From NCBI GenBank assembly GCA_965201115.1, contig OZ241745.1:2534340-2598339 (forward strand): a stretch of 64,000 nucleotides of DNA, given 5' to 3'. The DNA is from Alphaproteobacteria bacterium. Lineage in GTDB: Bacteria; Pseudomonadota; Alphaproteobacteria; UBA7887. Below, piece by piece: positions 13,386 through 30,700 of the stretch. Within the stretch, counting starts at the first letter, position 1. Every line of letters starts with the position of its first letter. The position numbers were made by a program, and so were the translations under genes. The notes under the pieces were generated by a model. The model saw only the letters and a program-made list of their open reading frames with translations, ran no database searches and was not told the origin of the DNA.

Positions 13386-14081
13386 ATGAACAGTCCCAAC
13401 GCGCTGCTCTACAAGTGGCTGATCGTCAATTCGTTCGCCGCGCTGCTGGTCTACATCGCGTGGCTGCGGGACTGGATAGCGCTCGTGATCGAGAGCGACG
13501 CGAGCTATATCAGCCTCGTCATCGGCGTCGTGTTCCTGGTCTTCTGGGCCGTCAGCTCGTTCCATATCGTGAGCCTCAACCGCGAGATCGTGCGGTTTTC
13601 CGGGCGCGCCGAGTCCGGCCTGGCGGCGGAGTATGTGGGCAAGCTGCGCGCCAAGGCCGCCAAAACCGCCGGCGCGCCGCTCGATCAGGGCATGCTCGCC
13701 GGCGCGCTCAGGGCGCGCCTGTTCCTGCCCATCCAGATAATCGACTACGTCGCCAACGTGCTGATCCTGCTCGGTCTTATCGGAACGGTGGTGGGCTTCG
13801 TCATCGCCGTGAGCGGCCTTGGCGACAGCATCGCCGGCGGGACCAATCTCGAACGCGTACAAGGCGTGCTCGGCCAAATCGTCAACGGCATGGGCGTGGC
13901 GCTGTTCACCACCCTCGTCGGCGCGATCCTCGGCGGCCTGTGGCTGGAGATCCACTACCGGATGCTCGCCCGCGCCGCCGGCGGGCTGGCGATCGACATT
14001 GTGGAATACGCCGATGTCGAGGTCGTGCCCGGCCTCGCCGCCGCTGCGCTCGGCCGCGCGCCGGGCGCCGCGCCGCGATGA
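13386..14081 (+). CDS. MotA/TolQ/ExbB proton channel family protein
   Basis: LGLIGTVVGF and GMGVALFTTLVG transmembrane motifs. Confidence 0.85.
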   Translation: MNSPNALLYKWLIVNSFAALLVYIAWLRDWIALVIESDASYISLVIGVVFLVFWAVSSFHIVSLNREIVRFSGRAESGLAAEYVGKLRAKAAKTAGAPLDQGMLAGALRARLFLPIQIIDYVANVLILLGLIGTVVGFVIAVSGLGDSIAGGTNLERVQGVLGQIVNGMGVALFTTLVGAILGGLWLEIHYRMLARAAGGLAIDIVEYADVEVVPGLAAAALGRAPGAAPR

Positions 14082-14674
14082 ACGGCTTCGACCTCTTCGA
14101 GACCGGCGACCGCGAACCCGCCGGCATCGCCTTCCGCGATGTGCTGTTCCTCATGGTGTTCAGCCTCGTGGTGGTGATCTTCCTGCTCACATTTCTCATC
14201 AACCCGGTGCAGAAGCCCGACGAAGTGCCGCTGCGCACGCAAATCCTCATCGAGATAACGTGGCCCTCGGGCACCGCCTACGATATCGACCTGTGGGGCA
14301 TGGGCCCCGACGGCGTGCCCGTCGGCTGGGGCATCTACGAGGCCGGCCCGTCGCTCAACCTGGAGCGCGACGACCGCGGCAGGATCAACGACACCTCGGA
14401 ACTCAACTACGAATGGATGTCGATACGCGCGCGCGACCCCGGCGAATACACGATCAACGTGCATCTCTACAACGAATACGGCGAGGCGCTGCCCGTGCCC
14501 GTCAAGGTCCGCGTCGCCGGCAAGGGCGATCTCGGCGAAATCCACAGCGAGGAAGTGCTGCTCACGCGCCGCAAGGAAGAAATCACCGTCGTCCGCTTCA
14601 CGCTCGACAACGACGGCGGGCTGGTCGAGGACAGCGTCCACGATCTCCACAAGTCCATTATCTCGCAACGCTGA
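14078..14674 (+). CDS. ExbD/MotB-like single-TM protein with atypical periplasmic domain
   Basis: Asp-containing TM segment (AFRDVLFLMVF); periplasmic part ITWP..YDIDLW..RDDRG..NYE..GEYTINVHLY; ATGA coupling. Confidence 0.65.
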   Translation: MNGFDLFETGDREPAGIAFRDVLFLMVFSLVVVIFLLTFLINPVQKPDEVPLRTQILIEITWPSGTAYDIDLWGMGPDGVPVGWGIYEAGPSLNLERDDRGRINDTSELNYEWMSIRARDPGEYTINVHLYNEYGEALPVPVKVRVAGKGDLGEIHSEEVLLTRRKEEITVVRFTLDNDGGLVEDSVHDLHKSIISQR

Positions 14675-14690
14675 AGGGGAGGCCCCGCCC

Positions 14691-15173
14691 GTGTCGGACG
14701 TCATGGCCGCCATCGTCTTGTACGCGCTCTACGCCGCCACGGTGGCGTTCCTGTTCGCGATGCTGTTCATTCGCGACTGGCGGCGCTGGTGGTTGCGGCT
14801 CGCCACCGTCGCCGTCGGCTGCGCCGCCGCCGCCTACCCGGTTTTCGTCGCGCGCACGACGCTCGGCTACCCCGATCCCTGGCCGGAAGACGGGCGCTAC
14901 GAAATGCTCGGCTGGCAAATCGACGAACCGGAACGCGCCATATACATGTTTCTGGTAAACCCCGACGGGCCGGAGCCGCTCCACTACCGCGTGCCGTTCG
15001 ATCTGCGCACGGCCATAGCGCTCCAGGACGCGGCGGCGCAAATGGGCATATACAAGGAGCGCGCGGTCATCGTCCGCCGCGACCCGGAAACCGGCGAGAT
15101 CGGCTACGAACTCGCGTTCGCGAAGCGCTTCCCCGACGACGCCGAAATCGAAATCGGACAGGAGGCCCCGTAG
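14691..15173 (+). CDS. Hypothetical 2-TM membrane protein (paralog of the next gene)
   Basis: GTG start after GGGGAGG; two hydrophobic helices then TLGYPDPWP. Confidence 0.7.
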   Translation: MSDVMAAIVLYALYAATVAFLFAMLFIRDWRRWWLRLATVAVGCAAAAYPVFVARTTLGYPDPWPEDGRYEMLGWQIDEPERAIYMFLVNPDGPEPLHYRVPFDLRTAIALQDAAAQMGIYKERAVIVRRDPETGEIGYELAFAKRFPDDAEIEIGQEAP

Positions 15174-15175
15174 CG

Positions 15176-15661
15176 ATGCCCGGATTCGACCCCGATATCC
15201 ACCACGCCGCGCTGCTCGCGATCCACGTCGGCTGCGTCGCGCTGATCGTGCTTGCCGTGCTCACGCGCCGGCGCGGGTTGCGCCCGCCCGCCGTCGCAGC
15301 CGGCGCGGCGGCGCTGTGGCTGCCGCTGTTCGCGCTCACCGACACGCTGGGCCGGCCCAACCCGTACCCGCCGGAGGGGGACTACAAGGTAATCGCCAGC
15401 AAGCTCGACAAGGACACAAGCAGTTTCTACATGTTCGTCGATACCCTCGGCGCCGATCCCACGCCGCGCGTCTATGCGATCCGCTTCGACCCGCACCAAT
15501 ACGAACGCTTCGAGCAAACCGCGTCGGATTACGAGCAGCAGGTGCTGCGGCTGACGCATGGCGGCGGGAACTACGAAGTGACGTATGTGGACTACATGCC
15601 GCCCGACCTGCTCAAGGACGGGCTGATGCGCGGCTGGCAGGCGCCGCGCGAGACCGACTGA
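15176..15661 (+). CDS. Hypothetical 2-TM membrane protein (paralog of the previous gene)
   Basis: GGAGG RBS; two hydrophobic helices then TLGRPNPYP. Confidence 0.7.
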   Translation: MPGFDPDIHHAALLAIHVGCVALIVLAVLTRRRGLRPPAVAAGAAALWLPLFALTDTLGRPNPYPPEGDYKVIASKLDKDTSSFYMFVDTLGADPTPRVYAIRFDPHQYERFEQTASDYEQQVLRLTHGGGNYEVTYVDYMPPDLLKDGLMRGWQAPRETD

Positions 15662-16101
15662 TGCGCCGGCTCGCCCTCGCGGCCGCGGCGGCCGCCGCGC
15701 TGCTGGCCGGCGCCGCGCCCGAAAGCCGCGCCGCCGACATAACGCTGCGCGATGCATGGGCTCAGACGCGCGAGGGCCGCTCCGGCGGCGCCATCGTCGT
15801 CGGCTTCACCCTCGTCAACCGCGGCGGCATGGCCATGCTCGTCGGCGCCGAGAGCAGCGCCGGCGCGACGGCGCTCATCCGCTCCGACACCGACGGGCGC
15901 CCCGGCGGCGCGACCCGCGTCGTCGATCGGATGATGATAGGCCCCGGCGCCGAGATCGAGTTCCGCCCCGGCGAATACACCGTGGTTCTCACCGATCTGC
16001 GCGGCGCCCCGCGCGAGGGAGACCGCCTTGTCCTGCGCCTGGCCTTCGCCGACGGAACCGTCGCCGAAGCCGAAATCGTCCTCGCCGCCGGCGGCGCCTG
16101 A
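15661..16101 (+). CDS. PCu(A)C-like periplasmic protein lacking the copper ligands
   Basis: Signal peptide; DAWA, FTLVN, LVGAES, EFRPGEY, LRGAPREGD..L.L.F pattern; canonical H..M..HxM absent. Confidence 0.65.
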   Translation: MRRLALAAAAAAALLAGAAPESRAADITLRDAWAQTREGRSGGAIVVGFTLVNRGGMAMLVGAESSAGATALIRSDTDGRPGGATRVVDRMMIGPGAEIEFRPGEYTVVLTDLRGAPREGDRLVLRLAFADGTVAEAEIVLAAGGA

Positions 16102-18406: not shown

Positions 18407-19138
18407 TCAGCGCCTCCTGAAGATCATGCCGGCGGTCCACCCCGCCGCCAGCGCGAACATCGCGGCGAACACGCCGTAGGCGAGCGGCCGCGTGTGGGCG
18501 AATTCGTACATTTCGGCGCCGAAGCCCGTCTTGCCGATGGTCAGATCGGCGACGCGGCGCGCGGCGACGTCGCCATCGACGATGGAGAGCACCTCAGCGC
18601 GGTAGCGGCCGGTGGGCGCATCGGCGGGGAGCGCGAAAACGGCGCGGAAGAGCTTGTCCTCGACGAAGGACACCCCGTTGGGCGATTCCCGGTAATGCCC
18701 GGAGCGGGTCTTGAGGCGGACGAGGGCGTCGCGGAACGCCTCGGCCTCGGGCCCGGCGGCGGGCGGGCGCACGGCGTTGTTCACGCCCACGCCGAACCGG
18801 GCGAAGAGGCGCGCGGGCGCGATCTCCGCCCGCGGACGGCTGGTCGCCACGGCATAGTAGCCGGGGGCGTCGGGGAATTCGATCTGGCGGCGGTTGAGCC
18901 ACATGCCGAAACTGCGGCGCTTGCGGCGCACCACCACGGTCTCGGGCGGGCCGCGCAGGATGGCGACGACGTCGCCGCCGCCATCGCGCACGCCGAACAA
19001 CAGCACCTCGGCGCCGGTGAAACCGGTCGTGATCTCTATGCGGTGGGCGCTGAGATCGGCGATGATTTCCACTGCCGGCGCCGGCGCCGCGGCGAGCGCG
19101 GCGGCAACGGCGCAGACGGCGGCCGCGCGGCAACGCAT
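18407..19138 (-). CDS. TIGR02186 family membrane protein
   Basis: ADLSAHRIEITTGFTGAEVLLFG, GMWLN, PGYYAVA, LPADAPTGRY; coupled to the upstream TauE gene. Confidence 0.85.
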   Translation of the reverse strand: MRCRAAAVCAVAAALAAAPAPAVEIIADLSAHRIEITTGFTGAEVLLFGVRDGGGDVVAILRGPPETVVVRRKRRSFGMWLNRRQIEFPDAPGYYAVATSRPRAEIAPARLFARFGVGVNNAVRPPAAGPEAEAFRDALVRLKTRSGHYRESPNGVSFVEDKLFRAVFALPADAPTGRYRAEVLSIVDGDVAARRVADLTIGKTGFGAEMYEFAHTRPLAYGVFAAMFALAAGWTAGMIFRRR

Positions 19139-20046
19139 CACGGCGCGGGGGCCACGGAATAGAGTTCGCCGGGCGTCGCGACGAGATCGATCAGCAGTTT
19201 CGCGCATACGCCGAGCACGAGCAGGGCCAGCAGGCCGCGCAGTTGTTCGCCGCGCAGATACGCGCCGGCGCGGGCGCCGAACTGCGCGCCGACCACCGCG
19301 CCCGCGAGCAGCAGCATCGCCAGCATCGTATCGACCGTGCGGTTGGTCGCCGCGTGCAGCACGGTGACAATGGCGGTAACGAAGGTGATCTGGAACAGCG
19401 ATGTGCCGATCGCCATCAGCGTGGACATGCCGAGCAGGTAGATCATGGCCGGCACCATGAGAAAGCCGCCGCCGACGCCCATGATGGCGGACAGCATCCC
19501 GCCCGCGGCGCCGAGCGCGAAGGGCGCGAACACGCTGATATAGAGTTTCGATCGGCGGAACCGCATTTTCAGCGGCAGGCCGTGTACCCAGTAGTGCCGG
19601 TGCAGCCGCCGCCTTGCGCCGCGGCGGCGGCGCAATATCGCGTTGGCGCTTTCGACCGCCATCAACGCCCCCACGACGCCGAGAAAGGCCACGTAGGAGA
19701 TGGAGATCGCCGCGTCGATCTGTCCGAGTGCGCGGAGCTCGCGGAAGAGCAGCACGCCGGCGACCGAGCCGACGGCGCCGCCGGCCAGCAGCACCGCGCC
19801 CATGAGATAGTCCACATTGCCGCGCCGCGCGTGGGCGAGCATGCCCGACACCGACGAGGCGGCGATCTGATTGGCCTCGCTGCCGACGGCGACGGCCGGC
19901 GGCACGCCGGCGAAAATCAGCAGCGGGGTGAGCAGAAACCCGCCGCCGATGCCGAACAGGCCCGAGAGAAACCCGACGCCGCCGCCCAGGCCAAGCAGGA
20001 GCAGCACGCTGACCGACATTTCGGCGATGGGGAGATAGACGTCCAT
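19138..20046 (-). CDS. TauE/SafE family sulfite exporter
   Basis: MDVYLPIAEM, GLFGIGGGFLLTP, GVGGGFLMVPAMIYLLG. Confidence 0.9.
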   Translation of the reverse strand: MDVYLPIAEMSVSVLLLLGLGGGVGFLSGLFGIGGGFLLTPLLIFAGVPPAVAVGSEANQIAASSVSGMLAHARRGNVDYLMGAVLLAGGAVGSVAGVLLFRELRALGQIDAAISISYVAFLGVVGALMAVESANAILRRRRGARRRLHRHYWVHGLPLKMRFRRSKLYISVFAPFALGAAGGMLSAIMGVGGGFLMVPAMIYLLGMSTLMAIGTSLFQITFVTAIVTVLHAATNRTVDTMLAMLLLAGAVVGAQFGARAGAYLRGEQLRGLLALLVLGVCAKLLIDLVATPGELYSVAPAP

Positions 20047-21146: not shown

Positions 21147-22697
21147 CTATCGTTCGCGGCGGGGGCGGAGGGCGCGGAGGTCGGCGGCGCGGACGGCGCC
21201 GCACAGGCGGGCGGCGAGCGCGAACAGCGCCAGGCCGAGCGCGACGATCGCCGCGAGGCCCGCCGCGCGCCCGGCCGGGCCGGAGGCGAACCACGGCGCC
21301 AGCAGCTCGACGGCAAGGGCGACGCCGGCGGCCATCGCGGCGACGGCGGCGACCGTGCGCGGAAGGCGGGACCGCAAGCGCGAATCGAGGCGCAAATGGC
21401 CGCGCCGCGCCAGCGCCAGCGCCAGCAGGCCCGCGTTGAGCCACGACGACAGCGCGCTCGCCAGCGCAATCCCCACATGCGCCAGCGGGCCGATCAGCGA
21501 CAGACTCGCAACCACGTTGACGACCAGGCACAGCGTTGCGACGACCACCGGCGTGCGCGTGTCCTCGCGGGCGAAAAACCCCGGCGCCAGCACCTTGACG
21601 AGCACGAAGGCGGGCAGCCCGGCGGCGTAGGCGGCCAGCGCGCCCGCGGCGGCGGCGGCGGCGGCGGCGTCGAACGCGCCGCGCTGGAACAGCCCGGCGA
21701 CCACGGGCTCCGCCGCCACCGCCAGCGCCGCCGCCGCGGGCAGGGTAAGCAACAGCGCGTATTCGAGAGCGCGGTTCTGGCTCGCTTCCGCCGCCGCGGC
21801 CTCGCCGCCGCGCAGCTGGCGCGCCAGCGTGGGCAGCAGCGCCGCGCCCATCGCGACGCCGATCACGCCCAGCGGCAACTGCACGATGCGATCGGCGTAA
21901 TAGAGATACGAGATCGCGCCGGTGGGCAGCAGCGAGGCGATGATTATGTCCGCCAGCAGGTTCAGCTGCTGTACGCCGGCGCCGAGCGCCGCCGGCCCGA
22001 TCAGCGCCAGCAGGCGGCGCACGCCGGGCGTGAGCCGCGGCCGCGGCAGGCCCGGCAGCAGCCCCGCGCGGCGGCAGTTCCACGCGAGCCACAGGAACTG
22101 CGCGACGCCGGCGACGGCGACCCCCGCGGCAAGCGCGTGCCCCGGCGTCGCCAGCGCGCCGCGGAACGCCACGATGGCGGCGATCAGGCAGAGATTGAGG
22201 AGGATCGGCGCCGCCGCGGCCGCCGCGAAGCGCTCCACGCCGTTCAGCACGCCGGAAAGCAGCGCCACCAGCGAGATGAACAGCAGATAGGGGAAGGTGA
22301 GCCGCGTAAGCGCGACGGCGAGGGCGAACTTGTCGGCATCGCCGGCGAAACCCGGGGCGGCGAGGCGAATCAGCCACGGCATGGCGATCTCGGCGGCGGC
22401 CACTACCGCCACCAGCGCCCAAAACAACACCGCCATCGCCTCGCCGGCGAAAACGCGCGCGGCCTCGGGCCCGTCGGTTTTCGCGCGCCCGGCGAACAGC
22501 GGTATGAACGCCAAGTTGAACGCGCCTTCGGCGAACAGGCGGCGGAACAGGTTGGGCAGTTTGAAGGCGACGAAGAAGGCGTCGCCGACCAGGCCGGCGC
22601 CCACATAGCGGGCGATGAGGATGTCGCGAAGGAAGCCGAGAACCCGCGAGGCAAGCGTCCAGCCGCCGACGGTGGCGGCGAAACGGATCAGCGCCAC
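21147..22697 (-). CDS. murJ: Lipid II flippase
   Basis: [56 protein letters not shown] start. Confidence 0.95.
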
Positions 22698-22740
22698 GGG
22701 CGGCGAATCCGGTTGCGCTCGCGCGCGGTTTTCGCGGCGC

Positions 22741-22793
22741 GCGAACCCCGCCGAAGACGGGACCGGGGCGCCCGCGCGTCCCCGCCCGCACGT
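22741..22793 (-). repeat. Degenerate REP-like element
   Basis: aaccccgccgaa...cgtcccgcccgcacgt. Confidence 0.6.
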
Positions 22794-22930
22794 TTCCGCG
22801 GGGCGCGGCGTTGGCGGGGAGGCGCGGTCGCCGCCCCCTCTCGAGGCTTTCGCCCGGCTTGAGACGCGCGCCCGGGCCGCGCTTGCGCGCGGTTGCGCCG
22901 GCGCTCGCGGGCGCGCGCCACGGCGGGCGG

Positions 22931-25687
22931 CTAGCCCGCCGCGGCCGCCGCCGCCCCGGCCGCGCCCGCCGCGCCGCCGCCGGGCGCCGCCGCGAGCAGG
23001 GTCGTTCTGATTTCGTCGATACGGCGCGGGTCGGTCGCCTTCATTCCGAAACTGTCCTTGACATAGAACACGTCGACGGCGCTTTCGCCGTAAGTGGCGA
23101 CGCGCGCGCCGCTCACCGAGAGGCGCAGTTCGTTCAGCGCGCGCGCGACGTCGAACAGCAGGCCGGCGCGGTCGCGCGCGTTGAGCTCGATAACCGTATG
23201 CTCGGCCGAGGCGCGGTTGTCGATCAGCACGCGCGGCTGCACCTTGAAGACCGACATGCGGCTGGCGCGCGAGGCGCGCTCGCGCCGCGCGAGGTCGATC
23301 TGCGGCTTGAAATCGCGCGCGAGGGTTTTCTCCACGGTTGCCGACAGCCGCGCCAGCCGCTCGGCCCCCTCGACCGCGCGGCCCTTCGCGTCCTGCACGT
23401 GAAACGTGTCGAGCGCCATGCCGTCCCTGGTGGTGAAAACGCGCGCCTCGACAATGCCGGCGCCGCAAGCGGTCATGGCGCCGGCGATGCCGGCGAACAG
23501 GCCGGGATGGTCGGGCGCATAGACGATCACCTCGGTGACGGCGCGGAAGGCGTCGATGCGCGTTTCGACCGCCAGCGGCGCGGCAGCCGCGTCGCCGCGC
23601 CGCGCCAGGGCCGCGTGGCGCGCCAGCGCCTCGGTGTCGAAACTGAGCAGATGGGCGGGGTAGGCGCGGTCGAGAAAGCGCTCGACCTCGGCGGGCGGCC
23701 AGTCGGCAAGCGCCTCGCGCAAGGCGGCGCGGGCGGCGTCGATGCGCCGCGCGCGGTCCGCCAGCGCGTCGCCGCCGGTCATCGCCGCTTCGGCGCGGTA
23801 GTAAAGGCCGCGCAGCAGCTCGCCTTTCCAGCCGTTCCACACATTCGGCCCCACCGCGCGGATGTCGGCCACGGTCAGAGTCAGCAACAGGCGCAAACGC
23901 TGCGGCGAGCGCACGATCGCGATGAAATTCTCGACGGTGCGCGGATCGGAAATATCGCGGTTGAATGCGGTGGAGGAAAACAGCAGGTGGTATTTCACGA
24001 GCCAGACGACGGTCTCGGTCTCCTCCGCCGTGCAGCCGAGTCTGGGCGCCAGTTTGCGCGCGATGCGCGCGCCGATTTCCGAGTGATCGCCGCCGCGGCC
24101 CTTGCCGATGTCGTGCAGGAACAGCGCCAGATACAGCGCCCTGCGCGACAGGACCTCATGGACGATCCCGGTGGCGAGCGGGAGTTCGTCGGCCAGCGCG
24201 CCCTTCTCGATGCGCGACAGCACGCCCATGGCGAAGATCGTGTGCTCATCGACCGTATAGACGTGGTACATGTCGTGCTGCGTCTGGGCGACCACGCGCC
24301 GGAAGGGCGGAACGAACCGCCCGAGCACGCCCGCTTCGTTGAGGCGGCGCAGCGTGGTTTCCGGGTCGTTTTCGCTGACGAGCATGTCCATGAACAGGCG
24401 GTTGGCGCGCGGGTCGGCGCGCAGGCGCGCGTCGATGCGGCCCAGGTTGCGCGTGATGAGCATGAGCGCGCGCGGATGCACGTCGAGCGCGCGCGCCTGG
24501 GCGACGTGGAACAGCCGCAGCATGTCGATGGGCGCGCGCTCAAAGGCGTCGTCGCGCGCGACGCCGACGCGGCCGTGGTCGATGACGAAGCCGTCGATCT
24601 CGCGCCGCAACAGGCTCAGGCCGGGGAAGCGGAACAGCCGGCTGCGCGCCTGTTCGGCCTCGATGGCGGCGCAGAAGATGCGCGTCAGATCGCCCACCGT
24701 CTTGGCGACGAGATAGTAGTGTTTCATGAAGCGCTCGACATCGAGGCTGCCGGCGCGGTCGGTGTAGTCGAGCGCCTCCGCCGCGCGGATCTGCGTGTCG
24801 AACGTCAAGCGCTCCTCGGCGCGCCCGGCCAGGTAGTGGAGACGGAAGCGCACGGTCCACAGGAAGCGGTGGGCGCGGCGGAACATGCGGAACTCGGCCT
24901 CGGTGAGCACGCCGCGCGCCGCGAGGTCGCGCATGTCGGCGGCGCGGTAATGCGTCCTGGCGATCCAGAGGAGGGTGTGGAGATCGCGCAGCCCGCCCTT
25001 GCCGTCCTTCAGGTTGGGCTCGACGACATAGCGCGAATCGCCCATGCGGCGGTGGCGGGCGTCGCGCTCCTCGAGCTTGGCGGCCACGAAAGCGCGGGCG
25101 CCGCCGGCCAGCTCCCTGCCGAAGCGCTGCCGCAGCTCCAAGTGAAGCGCCTGATCGCCGTAAACGTAGCGCGCCTCCAGGAGCGCGGTGCGAATCGTGA
25201 CGTCGCCGCGCGCGCGGGCCAGCGTCTCGTCGATCGACCGCGCCGCGTGGCCTGTCGCCAGCCCCAGGTCCCACAGGACATAAAGCATGTATTCGACAAT
25301 TTGCTCGCCGCGCGGGGTGATCTTGTAGGGCGTGAGAAACAGCAGATCGATGTCGGAAAACGGCGCCAGTTCGCCGCGCCCGTATCCGCCCACGGCCACC
25401 AGCGCGAGGCGGTCCGCCGCCGTGGGGTTGGGCTCGGGGAACACGCGGCCGGCGGCGTGGTCGAACAGGACGGAGAGCAGGCGATCCATCAGCCACGCGA
25501 GGCCCGCCGCCGCCGCGGGGCCGTCGGCGACGCCGTCGAAGCGCCGCCGGATTTCCGCGCGCCCGGCGTCGAGCGCGCGCCTGAGGCAGGCGAGCGCGGC
25601 GCCGCGCCCGGCGGCGGGGTCGAGCGCCGCCATCTCGCGAACGAGCGCCCTCGGCTCGATAATCGCGCGTTTGTCGGGTATCCGCAT
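22931..25687 (-). CDS. glnD: [Protein-PII] uridylyltransferase
   Basis: AVGGYGRGELAPFSDIDL, EPNLKDGKGGLRDLH, YHVYTVDEH, HDIGKG, two C-terminal ACT domains. Confidence 0.97.
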   Translation of the reverse strand: MRIPDKRAIIEPRALVREMAALDPAAGRGAALACLRRALDAGRAEIRRRFDGVADGPAAAAGLAWLMDRLLSVLFDHAAGRVFPEPNPTAADRLALVAVGGYGRGELAPFSDIDLLFLTPYKITPRGEQIVEYMLYVLWDLGLATGHAARSIDETLARARGDVTIRTALLEARYVYGDQALHLELRQRFGRELAGGARAFVAAKLEERDARHRRMGDSRYVVEPNLKDGKGGLRDLHTLLWIARTHYRAADMRDLAARGVLTEAEFRMFRRAHRFLWTVRFRLHYLAGRAEERLTFDTQIRAAEALDYTDRAGSLDVERFMKHYYLVAKTVGDLTRIFCAAIEAEQARSRLFRFPGLSLLRREIDGFVIDHGRVGVARDDAFERAPIDMLRLFHVAQARALDVHPRALMLITRNLGRIDARLRADPRANRLFMDMLVSENDPETTLRRLNEAGVLGRFVPPFRRVVAQTQHDMYHVYTVDEHTIFAMGVLSRIEKGALADELPLATGIVHEVLSRRALYLALFLHDIGKGRGGDHSEIGARIARKLAPRLGCTAEETETVVWLVKYHLLFSSTAFNRDISDPRTVENFIAIVRSPQRLRLLLTLTVADIRAVGPNVWNGWKGELLRGLYYRAEAAMTGGDALADRARRIDAARAALREALADWPPAEVERFLDRAYPAHLLSFDTEALARHAALARRGDAAAAPLAVETRIDAFRAVTEVIVYAPDHPGLFAGIAGAMTACGAGIVEARVFTTRDGMALDTFHVQDAKGRAVEGAERLARLSATVEKTLARDFKPQIDLARRERASRASRMSVFKVQPRVLIDNRASAEHTVIELNARDRAGLLFDVARALNELRLSVSGARVATYGESAVDVFYVKDSFGMKATDPRRIDEIRTTLLAAAPGGGAAGAAGAAAAAAG

Positions 25688-25828
25688 GGCCGCCAATATA
25701 GCAGTGCGCGGGAGCGCTTTCATGCCGCCCTTGATCGCGCGCGCGGCCGCGCGGTAACTTGGCGCGCCGGTGCGGGGCCGGGCGCGCCCCGCGCCGCGGG
25801 GAAGCACCGGGGGCAAGGAGAAGCGGTT

Positions 25829-26290
25829 ATGAAAACGCTTTTGCGGGCCGCGGCATGCGCGGCGGCGATCGGCGTTGCGAACATGGCGGGCGGCGCGGCG
25901 GCGGCCGACGCCGAGGCGGGCCGCGAGGAATATCTCGGACTTTGCATCAAGTGCCACGGGCTGCTCAAGAACGACCCGGACAGCTGGACGCCGCACAACC
26001 TGGCGTCGCCGGCCATAGCGTCGCCGCAAGGGCCGCCGCTCGTCGATGTGTTCGGCCGGCCCGCCGGCATTATCGATTTCTACCGCTATTCGCGGGCGTT
26101 CCGCGCGGCGCTCGAAAACCCGTGGGAATGGGACGCCGACGCGCTCGACTACTGGGTCGCCGACTCGCAAGCGTTTATCTCCGGAAGCACCATGTTCGTG
26201 AAGCTCCCGGACGATACGGCGCGCGCGAACCTCGTCGCGTATCTCGAGAAATACGCGCCGTGGATCCCCGACGCGGCGGAAGCGGAATAA
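25829..26290 (+). CDS. Class I cytochrome c
   Basis: Signal peptide, CIKCH heme motif, GPPL.DV.GR.AG, distal Met in GSTMF; AAGGAG RBS. Confidence 0.88.
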   Translation: MKTLLRAAACAAAIGVANMAGGAAAADAEAGREEYLGLCIKCHGLLKNDPDSWTPHNLASPAIASPQGPPLVDVFGRPAGIIDFYRYSRAFRAALENPWEWDADALDYWVADSQAFISGSTMFVKLPDDTARANLVAYLEKYAPWIPDAAEAE

Positions 26291-26326
26291 CCCGCGGGCG
26301 CAACGGAACAGCGGGAGGGCGGCGCG

Positions 26327-26713
26327 ATGGTCCGGCGTTTCATGGTTCCCGGCCAGCCGGAGCCGGTCAGCCACTACTGCCACGCGACGCGCGCGGGCGA
26401 CCGCATATGGGTGTCGGGAACGGTGGGCATCGCCGCCGACGGCTCGATCCCCGAGGATGCGGTCGATCAGTTCCGCCTTGCGCTGGCGAATCTCGACGCG
26501 GTGCTGCGGGCGGCGGGGGGCGCGCCCGAAGACGTGACGAAGGTGACGGTGTTCCTCACCGATATCGCCGACCGCGCGCGTATTAACCCGCTGCGCCAAA
26601 CGTATTTCGGCGAGCACCGCCCGGCGTCGACGCTGGTGGAGGTTTCCGCCTTGGTGCTGCCCGCGCTCAAGGTCGAGATCGAGGCCGAGGCGGCGGTGGG
26701 GGGAGAGGAATGA
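26327..26713 (+). CDS. RidA family protein
   Basis: IWVSGTVG, VTKVTVFLTD, RPASTLVEV, VEIEAEA. Confidence 0.9.
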   Translation: MVRRFMVPGQPEPVSHYCHATRAGDRIWVSGTVGIAADGSIPEDAVDQFRLALANLDAVLRAAGGAPEDVTKVTVFLTDIADRARINPLRQTYFGEHRPASTLVEVSALVLPALKVEIEAEAAVGGEE

Positions 26714-27477
26714 ACGTTCCCGGCGCCGTGCGGAGGCGCCGGGGGCGGCTCGCGGCGCCGGTATGCGCGCTGCTGCTCTGGGCGGCCGCGGCGCCGGCGG
26801 GCGCGGAGACCATCGACGCGGCGCGCGCCGCCTTCGCGGAAGGGCGCTTTCTTGAAGCGGCGGAAGCAGGAGCGGCGCTGGGCACAAGCGAGGGCTGGGC
26901 GCTCGCCGCGCGTTCGCTTGCGATATACGGCTTTCACCTCGCGCCGGAAGACGGGAAACAGGCGCTGTTCGTCAGCGCTATGGAGGCGGGCGGGCGCGCC
27001 GTCGCGCTCGACGCCGACAGCGCCGAGGCGCATATGCAGTCCGCCCACGCGATGGGCCGTTACGCACAGACCATCGGCTCGATGGAGGCGTTCGCCGAGG
27101 GTTTCGCCGACCGGATTCGCGCGGCGCTCGACGCCGCGCTGGCGCTCGAGCCGGACCACGTCGCGGCGCATTTGGCGCTGGCGGGCTGGCACGCCGGGAT
27201 TGTCGTGGCCGCCGGCGCGATGGGGCGCATTTTCTATGGCGCGACCGGGGAAGACGCGCTCAGGCACTACGAACGCGCCTTGGCGCTGGCGCCCGATTCG
27301 CCCATCGTGCGCTACGATTTCGCCGAGAACCTGCTGGCGCTCGACGATGACTACACGGAACGCGCGCAGTCCCTCCTCCGCGGCGCCATCGCCCTCGGCC
27401 CGCAAGACGCCTACGGCGAACTCGTCCGCAAACGCGCGCAAGCGCTGCTCACGGAGCTCGAAGCCGCCGGAAACTGA
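26710..27477 (+). CDS. Exported helical-repeat (TPR-like) hypothetical protein
   Basis: Signal peptide; repeated ALALxP helical pattern. Confidence 0.65.
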   Translation: MNVPGAVRRRRGRLAAPVCALLLWAAAAPAGAETIDAARAAFAEGRFLEAAEAGAALGTSEGWALAARSLAIYGFHLAPEDGKQALFVSAMEAGGRAVALDADSAEAHMQSAHAMGRYAQTIGSMEAFAEGFADRIRAALDAALALEPDHVAAHLALAGWHAGIVVAAGAMGRIFYGATGEDALRHYERALALAPDSPIVRYDFAENLLALDDDYTERAQSLLRGAIALGPQDAYGELVRKRAQALLTELEAAGN

Positions 27478-27765: not shown

Positions 27766-30700
27766 TCAGAAGCGGACGGTGAGTGTTGCGCTGCCGCTGA
27801 AGTCTCGGTTGCCGTGGCGGGCGGCGGCGTAGTTGGCGTTGGCGCGGAGGGCTATGCGGCCGTCGGCCCATTCGTGGGCGGCGCCGAGGCCGAGGCGGGC
27901 CCATGTCGCTTCCGCTTCGGCTTCGAAGGGGCGGTCCGCCGCCGTGGTTTCCATTGCGCCGGACAGTTCGCGCTCAAGGTCCAGCGTTGCGAACATGGCG
28001 CCGGCGCCGCCGGGGAGGGCGGCGGACTCGGCGCGCACGCCGGCGCGGGCCGTAATGCGGCGGCCCGCGTCAAGCGACACGCGCTCGTTCACGGAGTCCG
28101 TGAACGACGACATCTCCACCATCGACCAATCGGCGCCCGCGCGCGGCGTCAGCGTCACGCGGCCCAGCTCGAGGCGCCGCCCGATCTCCACGCCGGCGGC
28201 GTAGCCGCGGCCCGACAAGTCTCGCGCAAGGGCGCCCTCGAACGCCGAAGCCGAATCCAGATCGGCCTCGTACAGCGTCGCCGCGGCCTGAGCGCTCACA
28301 TAGATATTCTCGGCGGGCAGCCATGCGCCCGATATGCGGGCGCCCGTGCCGGTTATCTCGACCCGGCCGCCGCCCGCCTCGGTGTCCGCGTCGGTGTCCA
28401 CATCGGCGCGGCCGCGCACATGATGAACGGAGATCGCGAACACGCCGCGCTCGCCCGCCGCGCCCTCGATCCCCGCCTCGAACCCGAAGCGGCGGTAGTC
28501 GTGATGCGCCTGCGCGACAGACGACGCCGGATGGCGCTCGCCGCCGGCGGCGTCGAGGCGCGCGAACGCGCCGCGCGGCGCGCCCGCCGAAGCGAAACGG
28601 TCGCCGTGGGCGGGGAGCGCGTTCAGCGCCAGCAGCGCCGAAGGCAGAGCTTCGTACACGCGGTGGCGCGGCGCCGGACCGACCTCGATGCGACCGTCGC
28701 GGGTTATCCGGAGACGCGAATCGACGCGGCCCTGGCGCTTGAGCGTAATCGTCGCGTTGCCGGCGTCGATGCGACCGCCGCCCAGGCGCAGCGCCGCCTC
28801 CTCGTCGGTTTCGCCCGCCGCCGCACGTATCGTTACCGTCTCGGCGCCGATGACGGGCTCCGCGATGCTCCCGTTCTCGCCTACCGTAACCGCGCCCCGG
28901 GGCACATCGACGCTCTGCGCCGCGCCGTCGACCGTGACTTCGCTGCCGGCGCCCGCCAGCGCGACGCGGCCGTCGATGGCGCCGCCGGCATCGACCGTCA
29001 CGGTCGAGGCGGCGGCGGCGTCGCGCGCCTCCACGGCGCCCTCCACCATGCCTTCCCCCTCGACCGTCATGTTCAGCGCGCCCGTCGCGACGGAGACCGC
29101 GACGCGGCGGCCCTGCGCGTCCTCCGCGCCCATGAGCACGCCGCCGGCCGCGACCGTCACCTCGCCGCCATCGGAAACCGTCAGCGGGCGCGCCGCTTCC
29201 GCGCGCCCGGCGATGCGAATGGCCTCCAGGCCCTCGACATGCCCCTTGAACGTCCCGCCGGACGCCACCGTCAGCCGGTGCATGCCGCCATCGCCGCCGA
29301 TGACGCCGCCGGTCAGTTCGTTGGCGACCGTGACCATCAGCGCCCCGGCGCCCATGCCCTCGATATTGCCTGTGACATTGCCGTTCACCATCGCCATCAG
29401 ATCGCCGGCCTCGCTGCGCACCGCCGCACGACCGTCGAGGTTCGACAGGCGCCCCCCGGCGCCGACCGACACCGTGCCGCCGCGGTCGAACAGCACGCTC
29501 CGGGCGGACCCTTCGACCGTCACCGTGCTGGCGGCCAGGTGGATGAGACCTTCGACCGAGCCGCCGGATTTCACATGAACGTCGTGCTCGCCGCCGCCGA
29601 GGCCGAATATCCCGCCCCTGACCGTGCCGCTCACATCCACATCGAGATCGCCGTCGCCCGCGCCGCGGATATCGCCCGCCACGGTCCCCATCGCCGCTAC
29701 TTCCACCGCCAGGTCGCCCGCCGCGCCGCGGATCGCCTCGCGACCGCCGTCCGAAGTCTCGACGCCCAACACCGCGCCGCCGGAGGCGACCGTTACCGAA
29801 CCGCCGTTCTCGTAGAGCACGCGCGCCGCGCGGCCCGCAACCGTCGCCGCGTGGGAACCCGCGCCCGCGCCGCGAATGGCGCCCGCAACCGAACCGCCGG
29901 ACGCAACCGTAACCCGATGCACGCCGGCGCCCAGGCCGCGGATATCCCCCGAAACCGCGCCCGCAACCGTTACCGTCAGGTCACCCGCGCCGCGCGCCTC
30001 GATGCGGCCCTTGACGGCGCCGCCGGACGCAATCGCCACCGTCAGGTCTCCCGCGTCGGAACGGATTGCCTCCCGAACGCCCTCGACCTCGAGAGCCTTG
30101 ATTTCGCCGCGCGCCCCGACCTTCACGGACCCGCCCCGGTCCAGCAGCACGCGCCCGGCCGCGCCGTGGTCCACATCCGCCTCGCCCGCCGCCAGGCGCA
30201 CCGTTCCCGTGACCATGCCGCCGCCGCGAACCGCGACCGTGTGCTCGCCGGCGCCGAGACCCAGTATATCGCCCTCGACCGTGCCGGTTACCGTCGCCGC
30301 CAGCGCGCCGCCGCGGCTCTCCACATTTCCGGTCGCCTCGCCGGCAATCGCGACCTCCAGGTCGCCCGCCGCGCTGCGGATCGCCTCGCCGCCGACGCCC
30401 GAGACGCGCCCGCTCGCCGCAATCGTCAGCGCGCCGCCGTTGTCGAACAGAACGCGCCCGACGGCGCCCGAAATCGTCGTCCCCCGCTTCGGGTTATGCA
30501 CCGTGCCCACAACCCGCGCCTTGTCCGCGATTTCGATCGTATGCACGCCCCCGCCGCGACCGAATATCTCCCCCGCAATCGTCCCGGTCTCCGAAACCAT
30601 CACCGTCAGGTCGCCATCGCCGCGCGCCTCGATATTGCCCGTCACCGTTCCGTGAACGGTAATCGCCAAATCCCCCGCGTCGCCGCGGACCGCCTCCCGG

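Follow-up and report, generated by a model that had tools for sequence, protein, structure and literature searches.

Only a few outputs are known for motors of the MotA/ExbB type, namely flagellar rotation, TonB-dependent import, Tol-Pal, gliding together with the type IX secretion system (T9SS), and Zorya. In the Ton and Tol systems (ExbB-ExbD-TonB and TolQ-TolR-TolA), a channel, an Asp-helix partner and a third, inner-membrane-anchored periplasmic protein are encoded by contiguous and translationally coupled genes. The same layout is found in a gene cluster at 13386-15661 of the window, by which we mean the whole 64,000-nucleotide stretch of alphaproteobacterial DNA analysed here. Genes g1 and g2 of this cluster encode a putative channel and its partner, while g3 and g4 encode two related proteins, hereafter called P. 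We consider it likely that the cluster represents a previously undescribed family of MotA/ExbB/TolQ-type, ion-driven inner-membrane motors, probably with 5:2 stoichiometry. It is thus a new family within a known kind of machine, and a candidate new envelope machine. No account of the g1-g2-P family was found in the literature.

The nearest published concept is that of TolQ-like genes with TPH-vWA partners, in which an Asp-bearing trans-pore helix (TPH) is fused to a vWA periplasmic fold, and which have been predicted only (Williams-Jones et al. 2025, PMC12204202). As in those motors, a TolQ/ExbB-like gene is found here without a tolR/exbD neighbour, the Asp trans-pore helix is placed on an unrelated periplasmic fold, and heterologous pairs occur, as in a g2'-g1-g2 arrangement encoded elsewhere in the window genome. 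Unlike in those motors, the periplasmic fold is predicted to be a beta-sandwich and not a vWA fold, and a third protein, P, is obligatory. The g1-g2-P family is not described in that study.

The locus comprises five genes, all located on one strand in a region with a G+C content of about 67-70%:

13386-14081, + strand: g1, 231 amino acids (aa), A-type subunit matching MotA_ExbB (PF01618)
14078-14674, + strand: g2, 198 aa, candidate B-type subunit with an Asp-bearing transmembrane (TM) helix
14691-15173, + strand: g3, 160 aa, GTG start, P paralog 1
15176-15661, + strand: g4, 161 aa, P paralog 2
15661-16101, + strand: g5, 146 aa, PCuAC family (PF04314), probably a lineage-specific fifth gene

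The start of g2 overlaps the stop of g1 by 4 nt (ATGA). A gap of 16 nt separates g2 from g3, with a ribosome-binding site (GGGGAGG) immediately 5' of g3, and g3 and g4 are 2 nt apart. A preliminary description of this DNA had reported tightly coupled genes at 13386-15661; its coordinates are right, and neighbouring genes either overlap at stop and start or are separated by 2-16 nt.

Predicted parts of the proposed motor

The product of g1 matches PF01618 with 28.3 bits (cut-off 22.9), and the same match was obtained in a genome-wide scan. A family profile of 32 relatives reached MotA (8gqy, 5e-4), ZorA (8vvn, 5e-3) and PomA in the PDB over TM3-TM4 only, while no ExbB or TolQ chain was matched at E<=1. 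Hydropathy analysis predicted four TM segments, the number present in MotA, and a basic cytoplasmic loop of only about 55 aa. Two stretches, L129-G130-L131-x-G133-T134-V135-x-G137-F138 and A172-L173-x-x-T176-L177, show no variation outside the x positions among the 32 family members; T175 is almost invariant, and the motifs LLGLIGTVxGF and ALxTTLxG are near-invariant. In this channel family, polar residues of the last two TM helices line the ion path, and Thr134, Thr175 and Thr176 supply such residues at positions that align with TM3/TM4 of MotA, PomA and ZorA. Judged from its sequence, g1 is a divergent member of the MotA/TolQ/ExbB channel family, to which the preliminary description had also assigned it.

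One hydrophobic helix (residues 23-41) is present in g2, and F19-R20-D21 just before it is invariant in all 84 family members compared, in keeping with B-type subunits, whose single N-terminal TM helix has a protonatable Asp near its cytoplasmic end. The g2 paralogs of the same genome retain TVFRD or FTD, and the g2 homologue p040 of phage 16-3 has an Asp at the helix start. In the AlphaFold2 (AF2) model of g2 (pLDDT 84.8), the TM helix is followed by a linker of about 14 aa and an eight-strand beta-sandwich. Searches of g2 against Pfam, NCBIfam and PADLOC gave nothing at E<=1, and no PHROG family was found either. Foldseek comparison of the model with the PDB gave nothing at E<=1e-3; the fold search returned generic beta-sandwich likenesses such as DUF4425 and MmpS5, all above E 1e-3, and the sequence search of the PDB returned Ig-like repeats only (internalin K, 1.1e-5, and filamin). 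Alignment of g2 with TolR/ExbD of its own genome by hhalign gave a probability of 0.1, without a PF02472 match. An OmpA-family domain was not matched in Pfam or NCBIfam, and the AF2 model is all-beta. Because of the beta-sandwich model, the missing Foldseek match and the hhalign result, the modelled periplasmic domain is read as neither ExbD-like nor OmpA-like. The single-TM partner with its FRD Asp, and a periplasmic domain of neither type, had both been anticipated in the preliminary description.

The beta-sandwich of g2 contains many invariant residues (W62, D69, D71, W73, R97, D98, D99, G101, D105, E112, R117, Y124, N127 and H129), suggesting that g2 has a specific binding surface. As a guess, the ligand of this predicted surface could be a metal, a glycan or a protein.

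The two P proteins of the window, g3 and g4, are paralogs as initially described, with a BLASTP E-value of 2e-9 and 29% identity over 143 residues. For g3, hydropathy predicts a TM hairpin whose loop is basic; its periplasmic part is a small putative beta-barrel. The AF2 model of g4 (pLDDT 84.4) likewise has a TM hairpin with a basic loop. A domain of OB-like type (beta-beta-beta-alpha-beta-beta) follows, and the protein ends with a short tail that contains Pro. Foldseek search of this model against the PDB gave nothing at E<=1e-3, and the closest fold likenesses were non-significant OB folds, such as SSB and SilF/CusF (TM-score about 0.55). All 129 relatives of g4 are annotated as 'hypothetical' and are without a Pfam domain, and the P family corresponds to no Pfam, NCBIfam, PADLOC or PHROG family. 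Across the clade that carries two P genes, P1 and P2 form separate orthologous groups, with identities alternating between about 25% and 50-75%, which indicates that the duplication is old. P was also compared with the TonB and TolA transducers, which have a single TM helix with the SHLS/His motif, a long Pro-rich or helical linker and a TonB_C or TolA_C domain. In P, two TM helices lead straight into a domain of about 100 aa, with no spanning linker and no TonB_C or TolA_C match in Pfam. The proposal that the paralog pair might be the 'output module' was drawn only by analogy with TonB and TolA.

According to the motor reading, g1 would form a pentameric channel ring, and g2 would be a dimeric axle whose helix, with the protonatable Asp21, enters the ring as in MotB, ExbD and TolR. 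The periplasmic end of the axle would be the conserved beta-sandwich, not a peptidoglycan-binding or ExbD fold. P would be the third component, present once in most lineages and as the diverged g3 and g4 pair here, with the TM hairpin as its anchor and the OB-like domain in the periplasm. P may dock on the ring or on the beta-sandwich of g2 and relay motion in the manner of TonB and TolA. Since P is without a long linker, the site of work would be next to the inner membrane rather than at the outer one. In the lineage of the window, the PCuAC-like g5 may have been added to the system.

Several points weigh against this reading. The family match of g1 is weak (28 bits over two helices), and the detectable sequence likeness of g2 to ExbD/TolR is limited to an x-D-V/L-hydrophobic motif. 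In a distant g2 clade (P0099-P0101), the column aligned to Asp21 is without Asp. In addition, we infer the 5:2 stoichiometry, the rotation, and the role and contacts of P by analogy.

Compared with the Ton and Tol systems, the locus differs in that the g1 profile reaches no ExbB/TolQ chain and g1 is predicted to have four TM segments. It also differs in the predicted beta-sandwich of g2, and in a P that is a TM hairpin without spanning linker or TonB/TolA C-terminal domain. The best sequence matches to TM3-TM4 of g1 are instead found in MotAB/PomAB and ZorAB, with which the predicted number of four TM segments is also shared. In contrast to these, g2 has no OmpA-like domain, g1 has neither a large torque-generating cytoplasmic domain nor the ZorA tail, and ZorC/D and flagellar genes are missing at the locus. 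The GldM and PorM domains in the periplasm are beta-rich. GldL-GldM and PorL-PorM resemble the g1-g2 pair in having a single-TM axle and in acting without a peptidoglycan-binding domain, whereas g1 is a PF01618 protein and not a GldL, the one small domain of g2 cannot span the periplasm, and no T9SS genes are nearby.

Zorya systems combine a ZorA with a long C-terminal tail, a ZorB with a peptidoglycan-binding domain, and ZorC/D or ZorE. A Zorya system was ruled out here: the PADLOC ZorA models match about 60 residues of the two-helix channel core of g1 only (up to 24 bits), g1 has just 231 aa, and g2-g5 are without PADLOC match. A known Ton, Tol, Mot, Zor or Gld system was ruled out as well, with no ExbD, OmpA or TonB domains at the locus and canonical systems encoded elsewhere in the genome. 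The view of the preliminary description, that this is a distinct MotA/ExbB-type system, is thus upheld, as the locus corresponds to none of the Ton, Tol, flagellar, Zorya and Gld systems.

Bacterial and phage copies

Among GTDB species, at least 457 loci encode a relative of g2, whose family comprises 2,085 clusters at 50% identity. The gene order g1-g2-P(-P) is essentially universal in the 80 of these loci that were fetched. The 101 close relatives of g2 are all annotated as 'hypothetical' and contain no Pfam domains. Co-occurrence of the genes in other genomes, as the preliminary description expected it, is found: g1-g2-P is retained in essentially all of the roughly 165 loci inspected. The conserved unit consists of three genes and not of four, however, as the duplication of P defines only one clade. 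Co-inheritance of the trio is strict, in phages as well as in bacteria. Of its three products, g2 and P are without a named family.

The two-P clade, in which g2 shares over 55% identity with the window copy, is found in metagenome-assembled genomes of sponge- and marine-associated Alphaproteobacteria, in SAR324 and in Entotheonella. The one-P clade (g2 about 40% identical) is found in, among others, Azospirillum, Geminicoccaceae, Dongiaceae and some Gamma- and Betaproteobacteria. Its flanks comprise 133 proteins with 164 Pfam families, none of which recurs more than four times, suggesting that the trio g1-g2-P is a self-contained unit. In Azospirillum plasmid records, which carry no annotation, the flanking genes are unrelated (BON, amidase, PurU and PhyR in the Pfam scan). 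In Azospirillum brasilense Sp7, the trio is located around 986,000 of NZ_CP012915.1. Members from different phyla share about 75% identity, which points to horizontal transfer.

Of 301 evenly sampled Alphaproteobacteria genomes, 45 (about 15%) carry the module, and these belong to 39 of 254 genera. One copy per genome is usual, also in streamlined carriers of 1.1-1.6 Mb, and some bacteria have two or three copies. The window genome contains three modules, i.e. the window copy, a one-P copy at C1:3648478-3650521 and a g2'-g1-g2-P-P copy at C1:1089413-1092294. Canonical TolQR and ExbB-ExbD-ExbD-TonB are also encoded in this genome, away from the module.

The g2'-g1-g2-P-P variant was observed at C1:1089413-1092294 and also at L032:6544-9658; in both, two different Asp-bearing g2 genes flank g1, which suggests a heterodimeric axle. 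Multiple copies within 16 kb of single genomes were observed at L053:6124-13680 (three copies) and L085:7229-16568 (two copies).

Homologues of g2 were also identified at 124 IMG/VR loci, and the full trio is present in 67 of the 80 viral loci examined. The phage g1 is shorter (150-190 aa), and the viral neighbours encode portal, tail sheath and head closure proteins, RIIA/RIIB, Rz-like spanins and endolysin. Among cultured rhizobiophages, the trio is present in, for example, 16-3 and RHph_X2_25. In phage 16-3 (NC_011103.1, about 22,576-24,512; L186:3139-5075), the unannotated p038, p040 and p042 are homologues of g1, g2 and P, respectively. Two tiny open reading frames are interleaved in the trio of this temperate phage, and a periplasmic trypsin-like protease (p036) is encoded just upstream. 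On the g2 tree, viral and bacterial sequences interleave.

This distribution could also be explained by a mobile, phage-derived envelope module used in phage-host conflict or infection (superinfection exclusion, lysis-timing or proton motive force (PMF) control, or genome entry). Bacterial copies would then be domesticated or moron genes, and linkage to other genes, such as those for quinoproteins considered below, would result from shared flexible islands. The viral loci among phage genes, the cultured rhizobiophages, the interleaved tree, the two or three copies in some bacteria and the high identity between phyla are in favour of this explanation. On the other hand, the window copy is set among housekeeping genes with synteny kept in relatives, and copies are mostly single, also in streamlined genomes. 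The flanks of one-P loci are metabolic and not defence islands, the defence models match the MotA core only, and the quinoprotein linkage is found in several clades with synteny conserved across phyla. We therefore regard a phage-derived conflict module as unlikely. A defence system as the main explanation was rejected, given the PADLOC match to the MotA core, the housekeeping and metabolic flanks and the streamlined carriers.

Under the preferred reading of an ion-driven motor, the family is large (about 2,000 clusters), shared with phages and kept even in genomes of 1.1-1.6 Mb, and once its output is found, ion-driven rotary motors would gain a new use. Cultured carriers, such as Azospirillum brasilense and phage 16-3 of Sinorhizobium meliloti, make its study practical.

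Quinoprotein linkage and possible outputs

Dehydrogenases dependent on pyrroloquinoline quinone (PQQ-DH) are encoded within 8 kb of the module at 23 of 87 loci, mostly of the two-P clade. In that clade, the PQQ-DH gene is accompanied by genes for a PedF-like cytochrome c, a tetratricopeptide repeat (TPR) protein and two unknown proteins, and often by NosR-like genes. According to the g2 tree, the linkage is present in at least five separate clades. The module-linked PQQ-DHs mostly carry WDYD, the extra Asp of which we take to be a marker of lanthanide-dependent PQQ-DH.

The linkage takes several forms. In the window genome, the module at C1:1089413-1092294 lies beside, and divergent from, a PQQ-DH gene (WDFD, C1:1087429-1089171). 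In four small genomes, the trio lies tail-to-tail with a quinohemoprotein alcohol dehydrogenase (ADH) gene (WDYT, CxxCH), and all four are without pqqC. In a genome of 1.1 Mb and 30% G+C (G172), the trio is divergent from, and 120 bp away from, a xoxF-pqq-lut-like island; the region (L102:2933-18267) contains xoxF (WDYD), a xoxJ-like gene, pqqE/B, a TonB-dependent transporter (TBDT) gene, an ABC-2 permease with its ATPase, a YncE-like propeller and Peripla_BP_6. Genes of Peripla_BP_6 and xoxF type are also found near the trio at L005 and L006. No mention of the trio in published xox/lut gene clusters was found in the literature.

Carriage of the module and of quinoprotein genes was compared in the 301 Alphaproteobacteria. 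Genes for PQQ-dependent ADH (PQQ-ADH) are present in 30 of the 45 carriers and in 60 of the 256 non-carriers (odds ratio (OR) 6.5, p 5e-8), while pqqC is present in 24 and 33 of them, respectively (OR 7.7).

Three side observations concern these enzymes. Two conserved proteins of no known family (about 180 and 210 aa) are always found with the two-P WDYD PQQ-DH and the TPR protein (L021:2850-3401 and L021:3499-4200; C1:2918200-2919919 in the window genome). The larger of them is sometimes fused to cytochrome c. The window genome (G000, 3.67 Mb) encodes seven to eight PQQ-DH and six to seven NosR-like (FMN_bind + Fer4_5) paralogs, and only two TBDTs.

Based on this repeated and independent gene linkage, a role in quinoprotein systems (PQQ-ADH, often of lanthanide type) is the leading lead for the output of the motor, although a tentative one. 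As a guess, such a role may consist in cofactor or metal handling, or in positioning or control of the enzyme. A more specific version, which we hold as doubtful, is that the trio might be a dedicated ion-driven machine of the periplasmic quinoprotein system, or 'lanthanome', which would draw on the membrane potential to capture, load or move Ln3+, Ca2+ or PQQ for PQQ-ADHs, or to dock and control these enzymes at the inner membrane. The acidic g2 beta-sandwich and the OB-like domain of P would then serve as handling surfaces, and phages would keep an energy-yielding pathway running or exploit the same motor at the envelope. If true, this would be the first 5:2 motor for enzyme or cofactor logistics, and not for motility, outer-membrane transport, division or defence. 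The PQQ/lanthanide linkage offers a concrete, testable hypothesis, and the way in which metals and cofactors reach such enzymes is poorly understood.

A number of findings tell against the quinoprotein lead. Neither PQQ-ADH nor pqqC is present in 14 of the 45 carriers, and PQQ-DH is not adjacent to the trio in most one-P loci and in all 80 viral loci. A PQQ role also gives no obvious reason for phages to carry the trio. In the window genome, the orthologous PQQ-DH cluster is intact and located 368 kb away from the window module. Some adjacent enzymes carry WDYT, which is read as the Ca type, and the co-occurrence statistics above were calculated without phylogenetic correction. Two narrower candidates were set aside. 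Strict lanthanide specificity was ruled out by the WDYT of the adjacent quinohemoprotein ADHs, and PQQ export is unlikely, as the four genomes in which the trio abuts an ADH gene have no pqqC.

The proximity of a TBDT gene in the lut-like cluster raises another explanation, in which the trio would be a divergent Ton-like energiser, with P as a minimal TonB analogue that powers an outer-membrane TBDT such as the lanthanide receptor LutH. The layout parallels ExbB-ExbD-TonB, and the ABC-2, YncE-like and Peripla_BP_6 genes of that cluster, as well as the Peripla_BP_6 and xoxF-type genes at L005 and L006, would fit such a function. However, P is a two-TM hairpin without a Pro-rich or helical spanning linker and without a TonB_C match, and receptor genes are not enriched beside the trio. 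Canonical ExbD/TolR genes are present in 15 of 15 carriers tested, and one carrier (G221, 96% complete) has no TBDT. Because the tested carriers keep ExbD/TolR and one is without any receptor, a Ton-like role is very unlikely.

An equally improbable alternative is that the complex generates no force and is a gated ion channel or a sensor of PMF or ions, with a metal- or glycan-binding g2 sandwich and a regulatory P. The very small cytoplasmic part of g1, the still shorter g1 of phages, the unusually conserved g2 surface (D69, D71, D98, D99, D105, E112, W62, W73 and Y124) and a mechanical target that was not identified would agree with this, whereas characterised MotA/ExbB-family complexes with an Asp partner all transduce force (PMC9389320, PMC12204202), and the strictly kept third membrane protein fits a transducer.

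Fifth gene and surroundings of the window copy

The ATG of g5 begins with the base that ends the g4 stop (TGATG). In the four nearest relatives of the window locus (L008, L010, L011 and L012), and in no others, g5 likewise directly follows the module. Because of this overlap and this conserved position, the operon probably extends past g4 to 16101 and takes in g5. The g5 product matches PF04314 (PCuAC) with 44.6 bits and has a signal peptide. Its mature form contains no His, and the segment corresponding to what we take to be the usual copper-binding His/Met motif of PCuAC proteins reads PGEYTVVL.

Ten flanking genes were analysed by Pfam scan. The upstream flank encodes an inositol monophosphatase, a hydrolase, ETF-QO and an epimerase, and the downstream flank encodes HPF, PtsN, an HPrK-like protein, Usp, Alph_Pro_TM and TauE. 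TonB, TolA, TBDT and flagellar genes were not detected among these ten genes, in agreement with the absence noted in the preliminary description. In sequencing runs that contain the window locus, depth along the contig is even, at about 112, a pattern that resembles DNA, and several of these runs are labelled sponge metagenome.

Further along the window, an Alph_Pro_TM gene (PF09608, 244 bits) overlaps a TauE/SafE permease gene at 18407-20046 on the - strand, which is a conserved alphaproteobacterial pair. Finally, two long open frames of 1,347 and 2,577 aa, with a coding-like G+C content at the third codon position, were observed at 22931-26971 and 27766-35496, both on the - strand.

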